Below, one piece after another: positions 30,690-58,261 of a stretch of 64,000 nucleotides of DNA. Under the pieces are notes generated by a model. That model was given only the letters and a program-made list of their open reading frames with translations. It was not told where the DNA came from and searched no databases. Source of the stretch: Heterodontus francisci (lineage: Eukaryota); the NCBI RefSeq assembly GCF_036365525.1, contig NC_090413.1, positions 20,072,151-20,136,150 of the forward strand. Reading direction: 5' to 3'. How positions within the stretch are numbered: position 1 is the stretch's first letter; each line of letters begins with the position of its first letter. The position numbers were made by a program, and so were the translations under genes.

Positions 30690-32508
30690 TGTATAAAAGG
30701 AACTGTATAAAACTGCAAAAGCCGTATAAAACGCTGGTTAGGCCATAGCTGGAGTATTGCGTATAGTTCTGGTCACCGTATTTTGGAAGGACATAATTGC
30801 TCTGGAGAGAGTACAGAGGAGATTTACAAGAATGTTGCCAGGGCTTGGAAGTTGCAGCTTTGAGGAAAGATTGGATAGAGTTATAGAGTCATAGAGTTAT
30901 ACAGCACAGAAACAGGCCCTTCAGCCCATCTTGTCCGTGCCAGCCATCAGGCACCTATCTATTCTAATCCCATTTTCCAGCACTTGGCCCGTAGCCTTGT
31001 ATGCTATGGCGTTTCAAGTGCTCATCTAAATACTTCTTAAATGTTGTGAGGGTTCCTGCCTCTACCACCCATTCAGGCAGTGTGTTCCAGATTCCAACCA
31101 CCCTCTGGGTGAAAAACCTTTTCCTCAAATCCCCTGTAAACCTTCTGCCCTTTACCTTAAATCTATGCCCCCAGTTAGTGACACCTCCGCTAAGGGAAAA
31201 CGTTTCTTCCTGTCTACCCTATCTGTGCTCCTCATAATTTTGTATACCTCAATCAGGTCCCCCCTCAGCCTTCTCTGCTCTGAAGAAAACAACCCTAGCA
31301 CTAATCTCTCTTCATAGCTGAAATGCTCCAGCCCAGGCAACATCCTGGTATATCTCTTCTGCACCCTCTCCAGTGCAATCACATCCTTCCTATAGTGTGG
31401 TTACCAGAACTGTACACAATACTCCAGCTGTGGCCTAACTAACATTTTATACAGCTCCATCATAATCTCCCTGCTCTTATATTCTATGTCTCGGCTAATA
31501 AAGGCAAGTATCCCATATGCCTTCCTAACCACCCTATCTACCTGTGCTGCTGCCTTCAGTGATCTATGGACAAGTAAACTAAGATTGCTCTGACCCTCTG
31601 TACTTCCTAGGGTTCTACCACCCATTCCCTTGCCTTGTTAGTCCTCCCAAAATGCATCACCTCACACTTTTCAGGATTAAATTCCATTTGCCACTGCTCC
31701 GCCCATCTTACCAGCCCTTCTATATCGTCCTGTAATCTAAGGCTTTCCTCCTCACTATTTACAACACCACCAATTTTTGTGTCATCTGTGAACCTACTGA
31801 TCATACCTCCTATATTTATGTCTAAATTATTAATGTACACTACAAACAGCAGGGGTCCAAGCACTGATCCCTGTAGTACACCACTGGTCACAGACTTCCA
31901 ATCACAAAAACAACCCTCAACCATCACCCTCTGCCTCCTGCCACTAAGCCAATTTTGGATCCAATTTGCCAAATTGCCCTGGATCCCATGGGCTGTTACC
32001 TTCTTGACCAATCTCCCATCGGGGACCTTATCAAAGGCCGTAAGTCCATGTAGACTACATCAACTGCTTTACTCTCATCTACACATCTAGGGTAGGGTTG
32101 TTTTCCTTAGAACAGAGGAGGCTGAAGGGTGACTTAATTGAGGTGTACAAAATTATGCGGGGTCTAGATAGAGTAGACAGGAAGGACCTGTTTTCCCTAG
32201 CAGAGAGGTCAATTACCAGGGGTCACGGATTTAAGGCGATTGGTAGAAAGATTAGTGGAGACATAAGGAAAAACATTTTCACCGAGAGGGTGGTGGGTGT
32301 CTGAAATTCACTGCCAGGAATGGTGGTGGAGGCAGACACCTCAACTCATTTAAAAGGTACCTGGACATGCAGCTGAAGTGCTGTAACCGGCAAGGCTACG
32401 GACCAAGTGCTGGAAGGTGGGATTAGATTGGGCGGCTAGTTTTTTTGGCCGGCATGGACACAATGGGCTGAATGGCTTCCTTCTGTGATGTAATTTTTCT
32501 ATGGTTCT
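30690..32508 (+). mobile_element. CR1 3' fragment interrupted by a second, antisense CR1
   Basis: YKTLVRP.LEYC...EERLD (ends ~30878) resumes as GLFSLEQRRLKGDL at ~32091. Confidence 0.85.
30879..32090 (-). mobile_element. CR1 LINE, 5'-truncated (~1.2 kb, RT C-terminal half)
   Basis: ORFs 31607-32011 (SGVLQGSVLGP, FTDDTK), 31401-31625 and 31152-31382; CR1 tail. Confidence 0.92.
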
Positions 32509-32540
32509 AACTTAAGGTCATCCAAAACTCTGCTGCCAAT

Positions 32541-32798
32541 TGTAATGAGTTCTTTTTATGTTGCCTGATGCAACATACATGAAATGCAGGGAGTCCAGTT
32601 GTTGAGGACCTCAAACAGGTTTATTAAACAGCTAAACTATTATGTACAGCACAGAGCTAACTATGAACAGAACCTCACTCTTGGTGTTACAGTTACAAAG
32701 TGACACAACTTTGGGTCACATGACTACATCCTGGTACTTAGCTGATTAGCATATTATGATCTTAAAGGGATATCACTCTTAAAGGCAATCAAACAACA
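32541..32798 (-). repeat. 3' LTR
   Basis: tgtaatgagt...aaacaaca; roughly 85% identical to 35825-36083 by eye; AATAAA on the minus strand. Confidence 0.93.
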
Positions 32799-32812
32799 GT
32801 CCCCTTCTTTCC
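32799..32812 (-). other. Polypurine tract
   Basis: GGAAAGAAGGGGAC on the minus strand, directly abutting the 3' LTR. Confidence 0.85.
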
Positions 32813-32961
32813 AAAGATAAGTCTTATATGCTAAAAGTAAAAACAGCTAACATTGGATAACATCAAAATTATTTACACATGGATAGAGATTGTGAAATTC
32901 ACAAATACAGAGGCTCAAATTTCAATATATCGTCTCGGTGGTTTGACAACTCTCGCTCGGG

Positions 32962-33400
32962 GAGTTTGTGTCTCATTTGTTGCTGTTTTCCTGAAGTTTC
33001 TCCCTCTCTGCATTCAGTTTCTGTTGCTCTGCCTTCAGCCTGCTAACATACTTGGTTGCTTTTCTCAAGATGACTGCTTTTGGGTCTTTGTCATTCTTGG
33101 AAAGTTCCGGCACCTCATCTCGAAGAGCTAACAGACAATGCTTCAACTCATTCCTCCTCTGCCTCTTCAGGGCATTGCATGTCCTTTGCCTCTCCTCATC
33201 CTTCGCGTCTGAAGGCCTGGGGCTTAAGGTCAAGGACTTGTTGGGGGAGGAGGACTTGACCTCATGGAGATACCTGTCCATTCTGGCTCATAGTGGTGCT
33301 GGCGGTTTTCTATAGAGCAGAAGTGGCATAGTTGTGCAGTTGCTGAGTTTCCAGACTGCATTGTTTGATGCTGGCCAGAGTCTGCGAGCAGGTTCCAGTC
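32962..33400 (-). pseudogene. Captured Myc-family C-terminus (MBIV, NLS-like region, bHLH-LZ), degenerate
   Basis: IKQC....QQLHNYA (Myc box IV); PPAPL*ARMD (NLS-like); [61 protein letters not shown]; after a frameshift, QQQMRHKL. Confidence 0.9.
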
Positions 33401-33419
33401 CTTGAAGATTTCCCCTTGG

Positions 33420-33760
33420 CAATGCTCTCGTGGATAGTTATGATGTTGAGGTCCTTACATGCTAGCAGTCCTGCCACTGCTGGTCTGTTAGTGTCTACTT
33501 GATAGAATGTTTGTGCTTTCCGTACTGACTTGCCGTATCTGCATTGCATTGTTAGTGTGCCAATGCAAGGATGGGTGATCCATTGTATGCAGATAACTTG
33601 GCAGTTTTCAGTTGTATCAATGATTTCCAACAACTCTGGTACATATCTTTGAGGATTCGGACTGGATATTTACACTACCGCCAGTGTCAATCTTGACTCT
33701 GAGTTTATGTTTGCCAGCTTTCTTTGGGCACATGATGTTAATAATGGCAAAAACGTCCAG
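33420..33760 (-). pseudogene. Retrotransposon aspartic protease
   Basis: LRVKIDTGGSVNI catalytic motif; the C-terminal IGT....C...F..V.......GL.AC.DL.II lies in another frame. Confidence 0.85.
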
Positions 33761-33989
33761 TTGTTTGAATTCATCAACATGATGTATAAGGTTCACAATG
33801 TGGAATGCCTGATTGTCTTCTGGCTGAGAATTACTTCTCTCTGAGTCTTCTCTCAGGTCTGTTTCACTGTGGACTTCATGTATCGGCTTGTGTTTACACA
33901 AGTCTTGGGAGATCTGCTGCTGTTGCCCTGTTTCTGCACCTGTCGTCAGTTTGCCTGCACCCTACTGTGACTTCTGGCTGTGTCTTCAG

Positions 33990-34692
33990 AGCCAGATTTC
34001 TTGCATAGGTGGGCCCAGTGTCCTTTTACACCACACGCCTTGCACAGGTCTTGAAATTCTTGAGCAAGTTCGCCGTGAGTGGGACCAATCACACTTACCA
34101 CACTGCTTACTTGATCTTTTCGACCTGGTTATCATGCCGATACTGTTGGCTGCACTTAGTGCTTGCAGATGCTGTTGTCCAGCTACAATGGCTTCATATT
34201 TTCTGCCATCTTCCAGCAGTGCATCAATGCTGTGACCTTTCTTTTTCTCCAAGAGGTCTTTCTGGAATGCTTCAATGGGTGTTGATACAATCACCAACTC
34301 CATTATTTGGTCTGACAGCTCAGCTTCTGAGAAGTCGCATTCATTGCCCTTACTATGGCATCTACTGACAAACTGGTCTATTGATTCCTGTGGCTGTTGC
34401 CTGTAGGGCATCAATTCCAGGCGGTGAATTGTAAAATTCACTCTTAATCTGAGCTGATCTTCTAGCACTTTCCATATCTTTGCAGGAGCTTTCTGGTCTT
34501 CTTCAGATATGCCCGACTTATTGATTCTGTGTAATCCCTCATTCCTAATTGCTATCATTATTTTTACAGCTTGCTTTTCTGGTTCTGTAATTTCTTGGTC
34601 TATGAAGTGTAACGACATTTTTGCTTGAACAATTGGAACTCAGATAGGATATCAATGGCCTTCCAGTTCATGCTGGGAAGTTTGGTATCCAT
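33990..34692 (-). pseudogene. Retrotransposon Gag (frameshifted)
   Basis: ATG at 34692 (MDTKLPSMNWKA...), RQQPQESIDQFVSRC...C.F motif, zinc knuckles CGKCDWSHSRRTC and CKACGVKGHWAHLC. Confidence 0.88.
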
Positions 34693-34888
34693 CTTCCTGC
34701 TATTCTTTTGCTTTCAAACTTGCTTTAAGATCTTGCTTTATGTCTCTGTACTGCTTTCCCTTTAAAAAAAATTCTCTTGGTTGCTTTGATTGGCAGGAGC
34801 AGGTGTTTAGCAGTGCTTGTCTGTTTCTCCAGCTTCCAGCACTCTAGTCTGTCTGTTTACACAGCTGTGCAATAGGCATTTTAAGTGA

Positions 34889-35212
34889 ATAAAAGCAAAA
34901 TACTGCAGCTGCTGGAAATCTGAAATAAAAACAGAAAGTGCTGGAAATACTCAGCAGGTCAGGTAGCATCTGTGGAGAGAGAAGCAGAGTTAACATTTCA
35001 GGTCTGTGGGTTTGTAGCATCTGTGGAGAGAGGAGCAGAGTTAACATTTCAGGTCTGTGGGTTTGTAGCATCTGTGGAGAGAGAAGCAGAGTTAACATTT
35101 CTCTCTGATGTGGGTTCTGATGAAAGGTCACAGACCTGAGATGTTAACTTTTCTTCTGTCTCCACAGATGCAGCCTGACCTCTGAGTATTTCCAACACTT
35201 TCTGTTTTTATT
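34889..35212. mobile_element. Palindromic Penelope-type short element with an internal 51-bp tandem triplication, inserted in the LTR element leader
   Basis: The arms aataaaaacagaaagtgctggaaatactcag...gttaac and gttaac...ctgagtatttccaacactttctgtttttatt are inverted; partial copies at ~15170, 21406 and 60518. Confidence 0.7.
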
Positions 35213-35788
35213 TTACGCATTTTAAGTGCTTTTTTTCTCTGCTAGTATTTGTTTATACAGACGTTCAATAAACAATTCTTCACGCTTGAGTGATTTTGAG
35301 AGTTTTTAAAACTCTGGCTAAATGAATGAAAGCTCTTCACGCCTGAGTGGTTTAATTATTTTTTTTAAAGCTTTAGCTGCAAGCTGTGTGAATGGAGGAT
35401 TCCCATTCTTTTTGCTGTTGGGTGCCTCCTGTAATGGCGCGGACCTTGATCACCCTGGGCAAGATGGATACAGTTGGTTAGCCTGAGATAGGGATTGGGT
35501 TTTCCCTTTTTTTTCTTTTACTGAGCTTTTAAAAAAATCAACTTTGCAAGCACCTCAAAGCTTTCTTTCAGCGGGGATTCCTGGACCATTGGGACAATGA
35601 CTCATCCAATCTCAGTGATTGATTTGCAGCCTGTCATTCAGTACTCTGTCTTCCACAGCTTGAGGTAAGTGTTTTCTTCTTTCCCTGTTTGGGCTAGTAG
35701 TTTTTAAAAAACTTTCTCGCTTTTAGCTGTAGGTGGGTAGTTTTTAAAGCTTTTACCTGTGGTCTTCAGCTTGGACTTTGTGTTCTCA

Positions 35789-35803
35789 CCACAGCTGCCA
35801 CCA
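35789..35803 (-). other. Primer-binding site, tRNA-Leu-like
   Basis: TGGTGGCAGCTGTGG follows an LTR end (...ATTACA) on the minus strand; complementary to the ...CCACCGCTGCCACCA 3' end of tRNA-Leu with one mismatch. Confidence 0.75.
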
Positions 35804-35824
35804 TGTAATGAGGAGCTGCCACTA

Positions 35825-36083
35825 TGTAATGAGTTATTTTTATGTTGTCTGATGCAATATAAATGAGTTGCGTGGAGTCCAGCTGTTGAAGACCTCAAGC
35901 AGGTTTATTAAACAGCTAAGCTATTATGTACAGTACAGAGCTAACTATTAACAGAACCTCACTCTTGGTGCTACAGTTACAGAGTGACTCTGTCTTCAAG
36001 TCACATGACTATGCCCTGCTACTTAGCTCATTTGCGTACAAAGATCTAAAAGGGATATCACTCTTAAAGGCAATCGCACAACA
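35825..36083 (-). repeat. 5' LTR
   Basis: tgtaatgagt...gcacaaca, followed by the CCAAT TSD. Confidence 0.93.
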
Positions 36084-36953
36084 CCAATGTTCTAATTTGC
36101 ACCAAGTCCTGCTCACCCATCACCCTTGTGCTCGCTGACCTACATTGGCTCCCAGTTAAGCAATGCCTCAAGTTTAAAATTCTCATCTTTGCTTTCAAGT
36201 CCCTCCATGGACTCTCCCCTCCCTATCTAGTCTTCACACTACACAACACTGCAAGATCTCTGCACTGCTCCAATTCTGGCCTCTTGCACATCTCTGATTT
36301 TAATAACTCCACCATTGGCAACCATGCCTTCAGCTGCCTATGCCCCAAGTTCTGGAATCTCGACCTCTCTCCTCCTTTAAAACGCTCCTTAAAACTCCTC
36401 TTTGACCAGGATTTTGGCCATCTGCCTAATATCACCTCATGTGGCTCAGTGTCAAATTTTGTTTTATAATGCTCCTGTCAAGCACCTTTGGACTTTTTAA
36501 TTACATCAAAGGTGTGATACAAATACAAGTTCTTGTTGTCTGTTATCTTGTCAGCCCAACATTGTGACGGAACTAAATTCTCATAGTGACCATTGTTAAT
36601 CTAAGGCAGTTCAGATGGGTGCATATTAATTCAGTTTTTGTGTGCTGTTAGACTGCTGCCCAGTTGCTATTCTAAACACTTCACATTTTGGCAAAAATAT
36701 TCAGCAGAAATGGTCGAATAAATTGAACAGAACAGTCTCAAAGTTAATTACTGTTCTTTTAATAGACTGTAAGAGCAGAAAAATTAAAAGGGAATTTCAT
36801 TTTCTCTTCACTCCCCTCTACTCAGGAAGACTTTGACTCTTTGCTAGATTATAGTAAAAATATAGAAAGCCCCTTAGAAGATATTAAGCTATTAGAATTT
36901 ACATATAGATTTTGAATTGCAAGGAGGTGGCAAATTATTGCGTCGGTTCTGTC

Positions 36954-40812: not shown

Positions 40813-43575
40813 TCAAACAACAAAGAACAGTACAGCACAGGAACAGGCCAGTCGGCCCTCCAAGCCTGCGCCGATCTTGAAGCCTGCCTAAACTAAAACC
40901 TTCTGCACTTCCGGGGACTGTATCCCTCTATTCCCATCCTATTCATGTATTTGTCAAGATGCCTCTTAAACGTCATTATCGTACCTGCTTCCACCACCTC
41001 CCTTGGCAGCAAGTTCCAGGCACGCACCACCCTCTGTGTAAAGAACTTGCCTCGCATATCCCCTCTAAACTTTGCCCCTCTCACCTTAATCCTATGTCCG
41101 CTAGTAACTGACTCTTCCACCCTGGGAAAAAGCTTCTGACTATCCACTCTGTCCATGCTGCTCATAACTTTGTAAACCTCTATCATGTTACCCCTCCACC
41201 TCCGTCGTTCCAGTGAAAACAATCCGAGTTTATCCAACCTCTCCTCATAGCTAATGCCCTCCAGACCAGGCAACATCCTGGTAAACCTCTTCTGTACCCT
41301 CTCCAAAGCCTCCACGTCCTTCTGGTAGTGTGGCAACCAGAATTGCACGCAATATTCTAAGTGTGGCCTGACTAAAGTTCTGTACAGCTGCAGCATGACT
41401 TGCCAATTTTTATACTCTATGCCCCGACCGATGAAGGCAAGCATGCTGTATGCCTTCTTGACTACCTTATCCACCTGCGTTGCCACTTTCAGTGACCTGT
41501 GGACCTGTACGCCCAGATCTCTCTGCCTGTCAAAGTGTTCTGCCATTTACTGTATACTTTCCACCTGCATTAGATCTTCCAAAATGCATTACCTCACATT
41601 TGTCCGGATCAAACTTCATCTGCCATTTCTCCGCCCGAGTCTCCAACCGATCTATATCCTGCTGTATCCTCTGACAATCCTCATCACTATCCGCAACTCC
41701 ACCAACCTTTGTGTCGTCCGCAAACTTACTAATCAGGCCAGCTATATTTTCCTCCAAATCATTTATATATACTACAAACAGCAAAGGTCCCAGCACTGAT
41801 CCCTGCGGAACACCACTAGTCACATCCCTCCATTCAGAAAAGCACCCTTCCACTGCTACCCTGTCTTCTATGACAGAGCCAGTTCTGTATCCATCTTGCC
41901 AGCTCACCTCTGATCTCGTGTGACTTCACCTTTTGTACCAGTCTGCCATGAGGGACCTTGTCAAAGGCTTTACTGAAGTCCATATAGATAACATCCATTG
42001 CCCTTCCTTCATCAATCATCTTTGTCACTTCCTCAAAAAACTCAATCAAATTAGTGAGACATGACCTCCCCTTCACAAAACCATGCTGCCTCTCACTGAT
42101 AAGTTCGTTTGTTTCCAAATGGGAGTAAATCCTGTCCCGAAGAATCCTCTCCAATAATTTCCCTACCACTGACGTAAGGCTCACCGGCCTATAATTTCCT
42201 GGATTAGGCTTGCTACCCTTCTTAAACAAAGGAACAATATTGGCTATTCTCCAGTCCTCTGGGACCTCACCTGTAGCCAATGAGGATGCAAAGATTTCTG
42301 TCAAGGCCCCAGCAATTTCTTCCCTTGCCTCCCTCAGTATTCTGGGGTAGATCCCATCAGGCCCTGGGGACTTATCTACCTTAATGCTTTGCAAGACACC
42401 CAACACCTCCTCCTTTTTGATAATGAGATGACTGAGACTATCTACACTCCCTTTCCTAGACTCATCATCTACCAAGTCCTTCTCTTTGATGAATACTGAT
42501 GCAAAGTACTCATTTAGTACCTCGCCCATTTCCTCTGGCTCCACACGTAGATTCCCTTCTCTGTCCTTGAGTGGGCCAACCCTTTCCCTAGTTACCCTCT
42601 TGCTCTTTATATACATATAAAAAGCCTTGGGATTTTCCTTAATCCTGTTTGCCAATGACTTTTCATGACCCCTTTTAGCCCTCCTGACTCCTTGCTTAAG
42701 TTCCTTCCTACTGTCTTTATATTCCTCAAGGGATTCGTCTGTTCCTAGCCTTCCAGCCCTTACGAATGTTTCCTTTTTCGTTTTGACTAGGCTCACAATA
42801 TCCCACGTTATCCAAGGTTCCCGAAACTTGCCAGACTTATCCTTCTTCCTCACAGGAACATGCTGGTCCTGGATTCTGATCAACTGACATTTGAAAGACT
42901 CCTACATGTCAGATGTTGATTTACCCTCAAACAGCCGGCCCCAATCTAAATTCTTCAGTTCCTGCCTAATATTGTTATAATTTGCCTTCCCCCAATTTAG
43001 CACCTTCACCCGAGGACTACTCCTATCCTTATCCACAAGTACCTTAAAACTTAAGGAATTATGGTCACTGTTCCCGAAATGCTCCCCTACTGAGACTTCG
43101 ACCATCTGGCCGGGCTCATTTCCCAATACCAGGTCCAGTACGGCCCCATCCCTAGTTGGACTATCTACATATTATTTCAAGAAGCCCTCCTGGATGCTCC
43201 TTACAAATTCTGCCCCATCCAAGCCACTAGCACTAAGTGAGTCCCAGTCAATATAGGGGAAGTTAAAATCACCCACCACTACAACCCTGTTACCTTTACA
43301 TCTTTCCAAAATCTGTCTACATATCTGCTCCTCTACCTCCCGCTGGCTATTGGGAGGCCTGTAGAAAACCCCAACATAGTGACTGCACCCTTCCTATTCC
43401 TGAGCTCCACCTATATTGCCTCACTGCATGACCCCTCCGAGGTGTCCTCCCGCAGTATAGCTGTGATATTCTCCTTAACCAGTAATGCAACTCCCCCACC
43501 CCTTTTACATCCCCCTCTATCCCGCCTGAAGCTTCTAAATCCTGGAACATTTAGCTGCCAATCTTGTCCTTTCCT
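40813..43575 (-). mobile_element. Young CR1 LINE, 5'-truncated (~2.8 kb: partial endonuclease, RT, 3' UTR)
   Basis: ORFs 41834-42883 (KSPGPDGIYP, NYRPVSLTS, DFSKAFDKVPH), 41530-41907 (FADDTK), 40893-41546 and 42902-43126 (SDHN); few frameshifts. Confidence 0.95.
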
Positions 43576-57400: not shown

Positions 57401-57580
57401 GGAGATATTTGACAGGATTAGGAACCATAGGCAAAATTAAAGCTAACACCTGCCCTACCTTGTAGCAGGAATCTCCAGATCAAGTAGAGTTTGATAGCAT
57501 CTGAGCTGGCACCTGTTCTTGCAGATAGGGTGCAGTCATTCTGACGCTGCGGAGGTTGGATGAATGCCTGTGGATTGGTA

Positions 57581-58261
57581 CAAAAGAACAAAGAACAGGT
57601 GGATAAGGTAGTCAAGAAGGCATATGGCATGCTTGCCTTCATCGGTCGGGGCATCGAGTATAAAAATTGGCAAGTCATGTTGCAGCTGTACAGAACCTTA
57701 GTTAGGCCACACTTAGAATATTGCGTGCAATTCTGGTTGCCACACTACCAGAAGGACGTGGAGGCTTTGGAGAGGGTACAGAGGAGGTTTACCAGGATGT
57801 TGCCTGGTCTGGAGGGCATTCGCTCTGAGGAGAGGTTGGAAAAACTCGGATTGTTTTCACTGGAACGACGGAGGTGGAGGGGCGAAATGATAGAGGTTTA
57901 CAAAGTTATGAGCGGCATGGACAGAGTGGATAGTCAGAAGCTTTTTCCCAGGGTGGAAGAGTCAGTTACTAGGGAACGTAGGTTTAAGGTGCGAGGGGCA
58001 AAGTTTAGAGGGGATGTGCGAGGCAAGTATTTTACACAGAGGGTGGTGAGTGCCTGGAACTTGCTGCCGGGGGAGGTGGTGGAAGCAGGTACGATAGCGA
58101 CGTTTAAGAGACATCTTGACAAATACATGAATAGGATGGGAATAGGGGGATACGGTCCCCGGAAGTGCAGAACTTGTTAGTTTAGGCAGGCATCAAGATC
58201 GGCGCAGGCTTGGAGGGCTGAATGGCCTGTTCCTGTGCTGTACTGTTCTTTGTTCTTTCTT
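57581..58261 (+). mobile_element. Young CR1 3' fragment with a 10-bp TSD
   Basis: ORF 57560-58180 is nearly identical to 40893-41546; TGGATTGGTA at 57571-57580 and 58262-58271. Confidence 0.93.

Follow-up and report, generated by a model that had tools for sequence, protein, structure and literature searches.

How did a long terminal repeat (LTR) retrotransposon come to carry part of a Myc-family gene where its polymerase should be, and has it moved with that cargo? The question is raised by an element at positions 32541-36083, on the minus strand, of a 64,000-nucleotide (nt) stretch of the Heterodontus francisci genome (contig NC_090413.1, positions 20,072,151 to 20,136,150; hereafter the window), which a preliminary description made from the sequence had taken for a Gypsy element with a captured Myc C terminus. 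We found that it belongs to a large non-autonomous Ty3/Gypsy family whose members spread with myc aboard. The history that we favor, with a probability of roughly 0.75, is one template-switch capture of spliced mRNA of the host gene mych, followed by helper-dependent amplification, nested shortening, and retention in frame of a disarmed passenger; capture and amplification taken alone are very well supported.

Structure of the element in the window

The element is bounded by TG..CA LTRs of 258 and 259 nt, identical at 223 of 258 aligned bases (86%). The remaining boundaries claimed for it, a CCAAT target-site duplication (TSD), a tRNA-Leu-like primer-binding site (PBS) and a polypurine tract (PPT), were all found as described. 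Its parts, listed in the direction of the element, are as follows.

36084-36088, no strand: TSD CCAAT, right copy, 5 base pairs (bp)
35825-36083, minus strand: 5' LTR, 259 nt, TG..CA
35804-35824, minus strand: 21-nt duplication of the LTR end and PBS start; sibling L005 has the same signature
35789-35803, minus strand: PBS, 14/15 complementary to the 3' end of host tRNA-Leu(TAG), a gene confirmed by ARAGORN
34888-35213, no strand: leader insertion with inverted arms, three 51-nt tandem units and a 12-nt flanking duplication
34003-34692, minus strand: gag, frameshifted, with knuckles at 34102-34064 and 34044-34003 and an open stretch at 34639-33989
33428-33760, minus strand: aspartic protease region, frameshifted, DTG at 33688-33680, 5' limit approximate
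32965-33427, minus strand: captured mych segment, host residues ~201-357, junction type C, broken near 33324 and 32990
32918-32964, minus strand: integrase C-terminal tail remnant, out of frame with myc in junction type C
32799-32812, minus strand: PPT, a purine tract adjoining the 3' LTR
32541-32798, minus strand: 3' LTR, 258 nt
32536-32540, no strand: TSD CCAAT, left copy, 5 bp

The two Cys/His knuckles and the DTG protease named in the preliminary description were both recovered. The first knuckle is spaced C-x2-C-x3-H, and Pfam zinc-knuckle matches fall on the second only and score below the curated cut-offs. Full-length Gypsy polyproteins of echinoderms and environmental assemblies, to which gag is 47-55% identical, align with the element over gag and protease, and then the alignment ends. 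A Pfam search gave no protease match at the DTG motif; alignments of full-length Gypsy pols cover this region. When the window element was compared with these pols, no reverse transcriptase (RT), RNase H or integrase core aligned, and myc stands in place of the core, again as described.

The insert comprises an HNYA box, a basic region, a helix-loop-helix (HLH) and a leucine zipper. Its Myc identity was upheld (Pfam HLH, E 1.1e-10; c-Myc in PDB, E 2e-18), while its extent, given before as about 440 bp running to the PPT, had to be revised to 463 nt (33427-32965), followed by the integrase tail remnant (32953-32918) and then approximately 100 bases up to the PPT. Frameshifts in gag, protease and myc mark this copy as decayed. 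The leader insertion (~326 nt) is missing from siblings and is later than the element itself; pieces related to its repeat are present in a few sibling loci. An older reading frame (window 32511-32540 and 36089-36469) is split by the element; it continues in phase across the target site, which argues for a clean integration. We take this frame, which has no Pfam match, to resemble the C terminus of an L2/CR1-type long interspersed element (LINE).

Donor gene and capture from mRNA

The protein closest to the captured segment is P0001 of H. francisci, named myelocytomatosis oncogene homolog (mych) by NCBI and encoded at 100% identity in two exons on contig C16; the window segment is 88% identical to host mych exon 3 at the DNA level. 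In a tree of 31 Myc sequences, which included no named MYCL, ten element copies joined host mych with support of 100/97, inside shark mych and apart from the MYC-like and MYCN-like genes of the host. Mean identity of these copies was 81% to host mych, 68-72% to other shark mych and 43-46% to host MYC-like and MYCN-like. By tree and identity alike, the donor is evidently host mych, not MYC or MYCN, as the first reading had supposed in placing the insert closest to this paralog. Because the copies sit with host mych inside shark mych, the capture is later than the split from Carcharodon, Mustelus and Stegostoma. Among 120 listed of 355 pol-myc model matches, element-type entries were recognized only under the host species, and unannotated copies elsewhere are possible.

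The 1,707-nt GT-AG intron of mych is missing in 11/11 long copies, in which the end of exon 2 and exon 3 lie side by side (zero offset in eight, local loss of 2-3 nt in three), indicating capture from spliced mRNA. The longest capture starts at about residue 121 and ends at about residue 357 of the 366-residue protein, inside the coding region, and the captured segment has no poly(A) or TSD of its own.

A Myc_N scan of the genome identified MYC-like (C5), MYCN-like (C3) and mych (C16) genes, with no clear MYCL in the best 119 of 1,624 candidates, which is no evidence of absence. The Scyliorhinus mych model P0003 carries an internal duplication of ~20 residues just upstream of the basic region.

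Family size, insertion sites and other organisms

To count copies in the 6.01-gigabase source assembly, we used junction-spanning 32-mers with at most 3 mismatches, whose matches are junction sites, not whole elements. Type C, the junction of the window copy, matched at 985 sites, type B at 387 and type A at 213, 1,585 in total. As a control, reversed patterns for the three junctions gave 0 matches. The patterns recovered 24/32 (C), 6/6 (B) and 4/5 (A) known copies, and since part of the known copies is missed, 1,585 sites is a floor. For comparison, a pattern of the helper type, placed where junction A lies, matched 1,077 times.

A DNA search, in which the best 40 of 12,919 candidates were scored, yielded 30 loci that were cut out: 23 with a long myc segment, one partial, and six without a match to the myc-segment probe, one of which carries a longer myc. 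At L021, L023, L025, L029 and L030, no myc match was found inside the DNA examined at each locus. When the myc frame was used as a protein query, all 150 candidates scored (the best of 4,006) matched; of 30 loci taken from this search, one is the window, one the host gene, and the remaining 28/28 lie in element context. Both LTRs were present in 15/30 loci, with a mean LTR identity of 88%, and among 14 LTR-paired copies that could be scored, six are flanked by a 5-bp TSD with no more than one mismatch, no two of these TSDs being the same. Altogether, more than 1,500 sites with shared junctions and different TSDs settle a point left to sibling copies before, namely that myc was aboard prior to integration. 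Per-copy statistics throughout are from 58 copies, the best-scoring matches; codon analyses exclude nine of these (coverage <85% or identity <80%), leaving n=49.

Beyond the source assembly, the four runs analyzed, of 24 listed, contain contigs that bridge junction C with at least 31 nt on each side; X7 is from organism A, X5 and X6 are from organism B, and X8 is from organism C. Two organisms besides the source hold this junction. That X6 and X7 are RNA is a guess only, and nothing firm on transcription follows. Aligned with the window copy, a contig of organism B shows just 7/367 differing bases and no gaps, which suggests that the window insertion itself is shared with organism B. An absolute date was rejected: an LTR distance of 0.13-0.15 at 7e-10 per generation, a rate from PMC10587355, gives ~1e8 generations, which is not credible, and dating is relative only.

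At L004 and L022, the 3' LTR directly adjoins another PBS-like sequence, which suggests tandem elements with a common LTR. Six NCBI models named myc-like or N-myc-like (P0002, P0004, P0005, P0006, P0008 and P0010) have the changed basic region of the family or pol-derived ends, and from their sequences look like element copies annotated as genes. The first ~270 residues of P0013, an SLC2A10 model of the host species, are gag and myc of the family, by annotation artefact or exonization.

Putative helper family and capture junctions

The preliminary description had called for an autonomous helper with the same LTRs. An RT-RNase H search with a related sequence, scoring the best 97 of 45,086 candidates, turned up such relatives: in three of the top four RT-bearing loci, LTR, gag and protease are ~75-88% identical to the myc copies and the full pol aligned, with no myc. 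L062 and L065 are colinear with the related pol P0016, and the relatives P0019 and P0023 have the order protease-RT-RNase H-integrase. L063 was rejected as a helper at ~66% identity. No env-sized region is present in L062 and L065, where the integrase tail and the LTR are ~170 nt apart, although no env profile search was made. The RT-bearing, myc-free family would be the helper that supplies RT and integrase in trans. With paired TG..CA LTRs, a short TSD, a PBS, a PPT and the pol order of this partner, the window element has the features of a Ty3/Gypsy LTR element.

Five 5' and three 3' junction types were seen, with B-E nested inside the A structure; junction C, the shortest counted type, is also the most numerous. 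At junction A, 7 nt are common to helper and host mych; at the long 3' junction it is 6 nt, with another shared block after them. Junction B lies at a 9-nt repeat and E at one of 7 nt; the match at C is ~1 nt, and at D it is unclear. In all, microhomology of 6-9 nt occurs at four of six readable junctions. Altogether, intron-less host exons in a discontinuous LTR element, microsimilarity at the switch points, and shared junctions with new TSDs are what is seen in LTR-mediated retrocopies.

Reading frame and fate of the Myc part

Across copies, the spacing seen most often is a multiple of three in 7/7 intervals from gag to the zipper, and for this reason the active element probably encoded one Gag-protease-Myc polyprotein. 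Every A copy that could be measured is in frame (3/3), as are 27 C copies with the modal spacing. Junction B lies 51 nt past the protease anchor in 6/6 copies and is in frame, yet indels at differing places put three of four B copies out of frame as a whole. For D and for E, one of the two copies is in frame. At the 3' side, the long junction continues the frame into the integrase tail (2 copies), which the common junction does not (36/45). Random microhomologies, taken as a null, would be in frame in 34-43% of cases when 3-6 nt long and in 56-67% when they reach 7 nt or more.

The N-terminal 120 residues of mych are missing from all captures; the motifs there are, we presume, Myc boxes I and II, which are absent because capture starts at about residue 121. 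MYC reads the E-box via His359, Glu363 and Arg367 (PMC10437117), corresponding to His286, Glu290 and Arg294 of mych. His286 is kept in 4/49 copies, Glu290 in 3/49 and Arg294 in 42/49; as a comparison, 111/111 matched cellular Myc proteins keep both His and Glu. Two of the three Glu290-bearing copies are of the longest type (A), which fits an order in which His would have been lost first and Glu later. Of 13 positions examined, eight changed in the element lineage, and five of the eight are sites where 95% or more of 113 cellular Myc proteins keep the residue.

No purifying selection on myc residues was detected among the 49 copies. The ratio of nonsynonymous to synonymous change (omega) for rare changes was 0.90-0.92 in myc and 0.92 in gag, and subfamily-diagnostic changes were nonsynonymous and synonymous at 5:1 (A vs C), 5:1 (B vs C) and 3:2 (a third comparison). 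Raw pairwise dN/dS (copy-copy 0.54, copy-host 0.45) was rejected as evidence of selection because approximately half of the copies were picked by protein similarity and because transitions and CpG bias the ratio. Altogether, nothing indicates preservation of Myc function, and the residue changes hint that DNA binding was lost early.

Proposed history and alternatives

In the history that we favor, a particle of the autonomous family would have packaged spliced mych mRNA. The 7-nt microhomology just before the RT domain marks where RT would have jumped to this mRNA, and the 6-nt microhomology in the integrase C-terminal region where it would have jumped back, replacing RT, RNase H and the integrase core by mych residues ~121-357, in frame at both ends. 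The chimera retained LTRs, PBS, PPT, gag and protease and went into many sites, where new 5-bp TSDs formed, presumably with RT and integrase from the helper. Shorter versions (junctions B, C, D and E, and shorter 3' ends) exist and may have arisen by nested deletion from one capture, an order read from the nesting because the DNA tree leaves the junction types unresolved as clades. The Gag-protease-Myc polyprotein would have been made with a Myc part unable to act as an E-box transactivator, the cargo most likely being a tolerated or disarmed passenger whose open frame was retained for element RNA or Gag production; the sampled copies would have decayed neutrally since insertion.

Several observations weigh against this history. 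Mobilization in trans was not observed, and no junction-type clades appear in the DNA tree (no branch at 95 or above). TSDs differ at 2-5 positions in eight of the 14 scorable copies; of these eight, two lie against another PBS, and in two an LTR end was not located. Widely shared changes gave an omega of 0.57-0.66, which is not significant (p 0.14-0.18) and mixes host and element branches. The earliest family-wide changes fall at two of the three base-reading residues, which, judged post hoc, looks non-random. Lastly, 5/5 shared 5' junctions keep myc in frame and the common 3' junction after the zipper does not (rough p ~0.03), a pattern that a mere passenger would have no need to show; against the null, the five in-frame junctions are suggestive, not strong.

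This last pattern is what would be expected if the bHLH (basic HLH)-zipper were itself under selection, as a DNA-binding-dead, more basic domain that binds Max in a dominant-negative manner or aids nuclear import or nucleic-acid binding and so favors spread, which we regard as possible but doubtful. The frame is lost only past the zipper, none of the five 5' junction types cuts into the bHLH-zipper, most replacements of His and Glu are basic residues or CpG-decay products of these, and myc-type sites (1,585) exceed helper-type sites (1,077). However, no purifying signal was seen between subfamilies, the final zipper leucine is retained in one of 39 short copies only, microhomologies of at least 7 nt are enriched for in-frame joins regardless, and non-autonomous elements can outnumber their helpers without useful cargo (PMC5131818). 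On this view, which we hold to be unlikely, a vertebrate germline element would have domesticated a Myc-family domain, holding the bHLH-zipper in frame while deletions recurred and E-box reading was lost. The domain would bind Max or target the nucleus, would have helped the element to exceed 1,500 copies, and would amount to a disarmed v-myc under selection in a non-viral element.

It is improbable that the different junction types stem from more than one independent capture of mych mRNA within the helper family. The five 5' and three 3' junctions, together with the lack of nested junction-type clades in the DNA tree, would agree with this, but His286 is lost in 5/5 A, 5/5 B and 35/39 other copies, B-E are nested in A, and the 3' junction motif, like the His286 change, is common to long and short types, which argues for a single origin.

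v-Myc of the avian retrovirus MC29 transforms cells, and the preliminary description had likened the element to this virus. MC29 produces p110 Gag-Myc (PMC7053243) and shares with the shark element an in-frame gag-myc fusion in a retroelement without most of pol. The analogy holds for this architecture, with a gag-onc fusion replacing pol, and is not supported for function: an env-bearing helper, and a cargo that retains the transactivation domain and E-box reading, as expected of an acutely transforming retrovirus, were not found. The shark element is non-retroviral and without env, retains its protease, took its cargo from mych and is germline-fixed at high copy number, and that cargo lacks the transactivating N terminus and, at two of three positions, the E-box residues, with no purifying selection detected. 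An MC29-like oncogenic transducer whose Gag-Myc drives germ-cell proliferation is therefore very improbable; helper-type relatives exist and Glu290 is still present in two A-type copies, but the N-terminal 120 residues with their Myc box I- and II-like motifs were never captured, His286 and Glu290 are nearly gone from copies and kept in 111/111 cellular Myc proteins, and no env-sized region lies between integrase tail and LTR.

A later retrocopy into one element, or an assembly chimera, can be dismissed, given junctions common to more than 1,500 sites and bridged by contigs of three organisms, and a segment that stops within the coding region and brings along neither poly(A) nor TSD. Neither a lack of Myc similarity, nor a unique locus with its own TSD or poly(A), nor a chimera, the three outcomes named beforehand as contrary to the preliminary description, was encountered.

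Relation to known systems

LTR-mediated retroposition in metazoans proceeds by template switching with a median microsimilarity of 6 bp at switch points (Tan et al. 2016, PMC5131818). Its products, like the shark family, hold partial spliced mRNA in discontinuous LTR-element sequence, often in frame and able to re-mobilize non-autonomously, and the 6-7 nt in the shark family compare with the 6 bp there. What differs is the >1,500 sites, the nested subfamilies and the Myc-family cargo, although some fly retrocopies occur at more than one site and the supplements of that paper may list larger families. Maize Bs1 (PMC5131818) likewise carries host exonic sequence in an LTR retrotransposon re-amplified with shared switch points, but with three donor genes and 1-5 copies; the shark family derives from a single donor gene and outnumbers Bs1 by a factor of hundreds.

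Planarian Burro/GYPSM1 (PMC6431247) is Gypsy-like, has thousands of copies, and bears in-frame host-like domains (BCL2-like, BIR, MATH) in its polyprotein; it keeps protease, RT, RNase H and integrase and adds domains, whereas the shark cargo, from one host gene at ~88% DNA identity, replaces the enzymes. Echinoderm K02A2.6-like/Mag-like Ty3/Gypsy elements resemble the family in their single gag-pol frame, two knuckles, protease-RT-RNase H-integrase order and gag (47-55% identical), and over 432 amino acids their pol is up to ~68% identical to the RT-bearing loci in the shark genome; they have no host cargo. Two gag knuckles occur in Mag and Micropia/Mdg3 alike (PMC2577118).

The preliminary description knew of no such element. 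Our literature search, whose scope left out most subscription papers, Repbase and Dfam, found no published description of one. The cargo and scale thus appear new within the literature searched; the mechanism does not, being already known from Bs1 and LTR-mediated retroposition.

Other features of the window and genome

No tRNA genes were found in the window. Decayed LINE-type fragments lie at window positions 31607-32059, 41837-42901, 40896-41546 and 57545-58177, two of which match Pfam RVT_1; these are ordinary shark repeats. Elsewhere in the genome, C34:18.73-19.00 Mb holds a tandem array of tRNA-Leu-type 3' ends at ~3,050-nt spacing, with many dozens of units and one confirmed tRNA-Leu(TAG).

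Significance

The capture step that lies behind retroviral oncogenes also occurred in a non-retroviral element of the vertebrate germline, with a Myc-family gene, and was followed by mass amplification. Element copies named as Myc genes would inflate Myc gene counts in H. francisci. Since the donor gene, helper family, junctions and nested derivatives all remain in one genome, the fate of the cargo can be traced stepwise through the loss of DNA-reading residues, shortening and frame retention, and the system allows one to ask whether a mobile element must disarm a growth gene before spreading.

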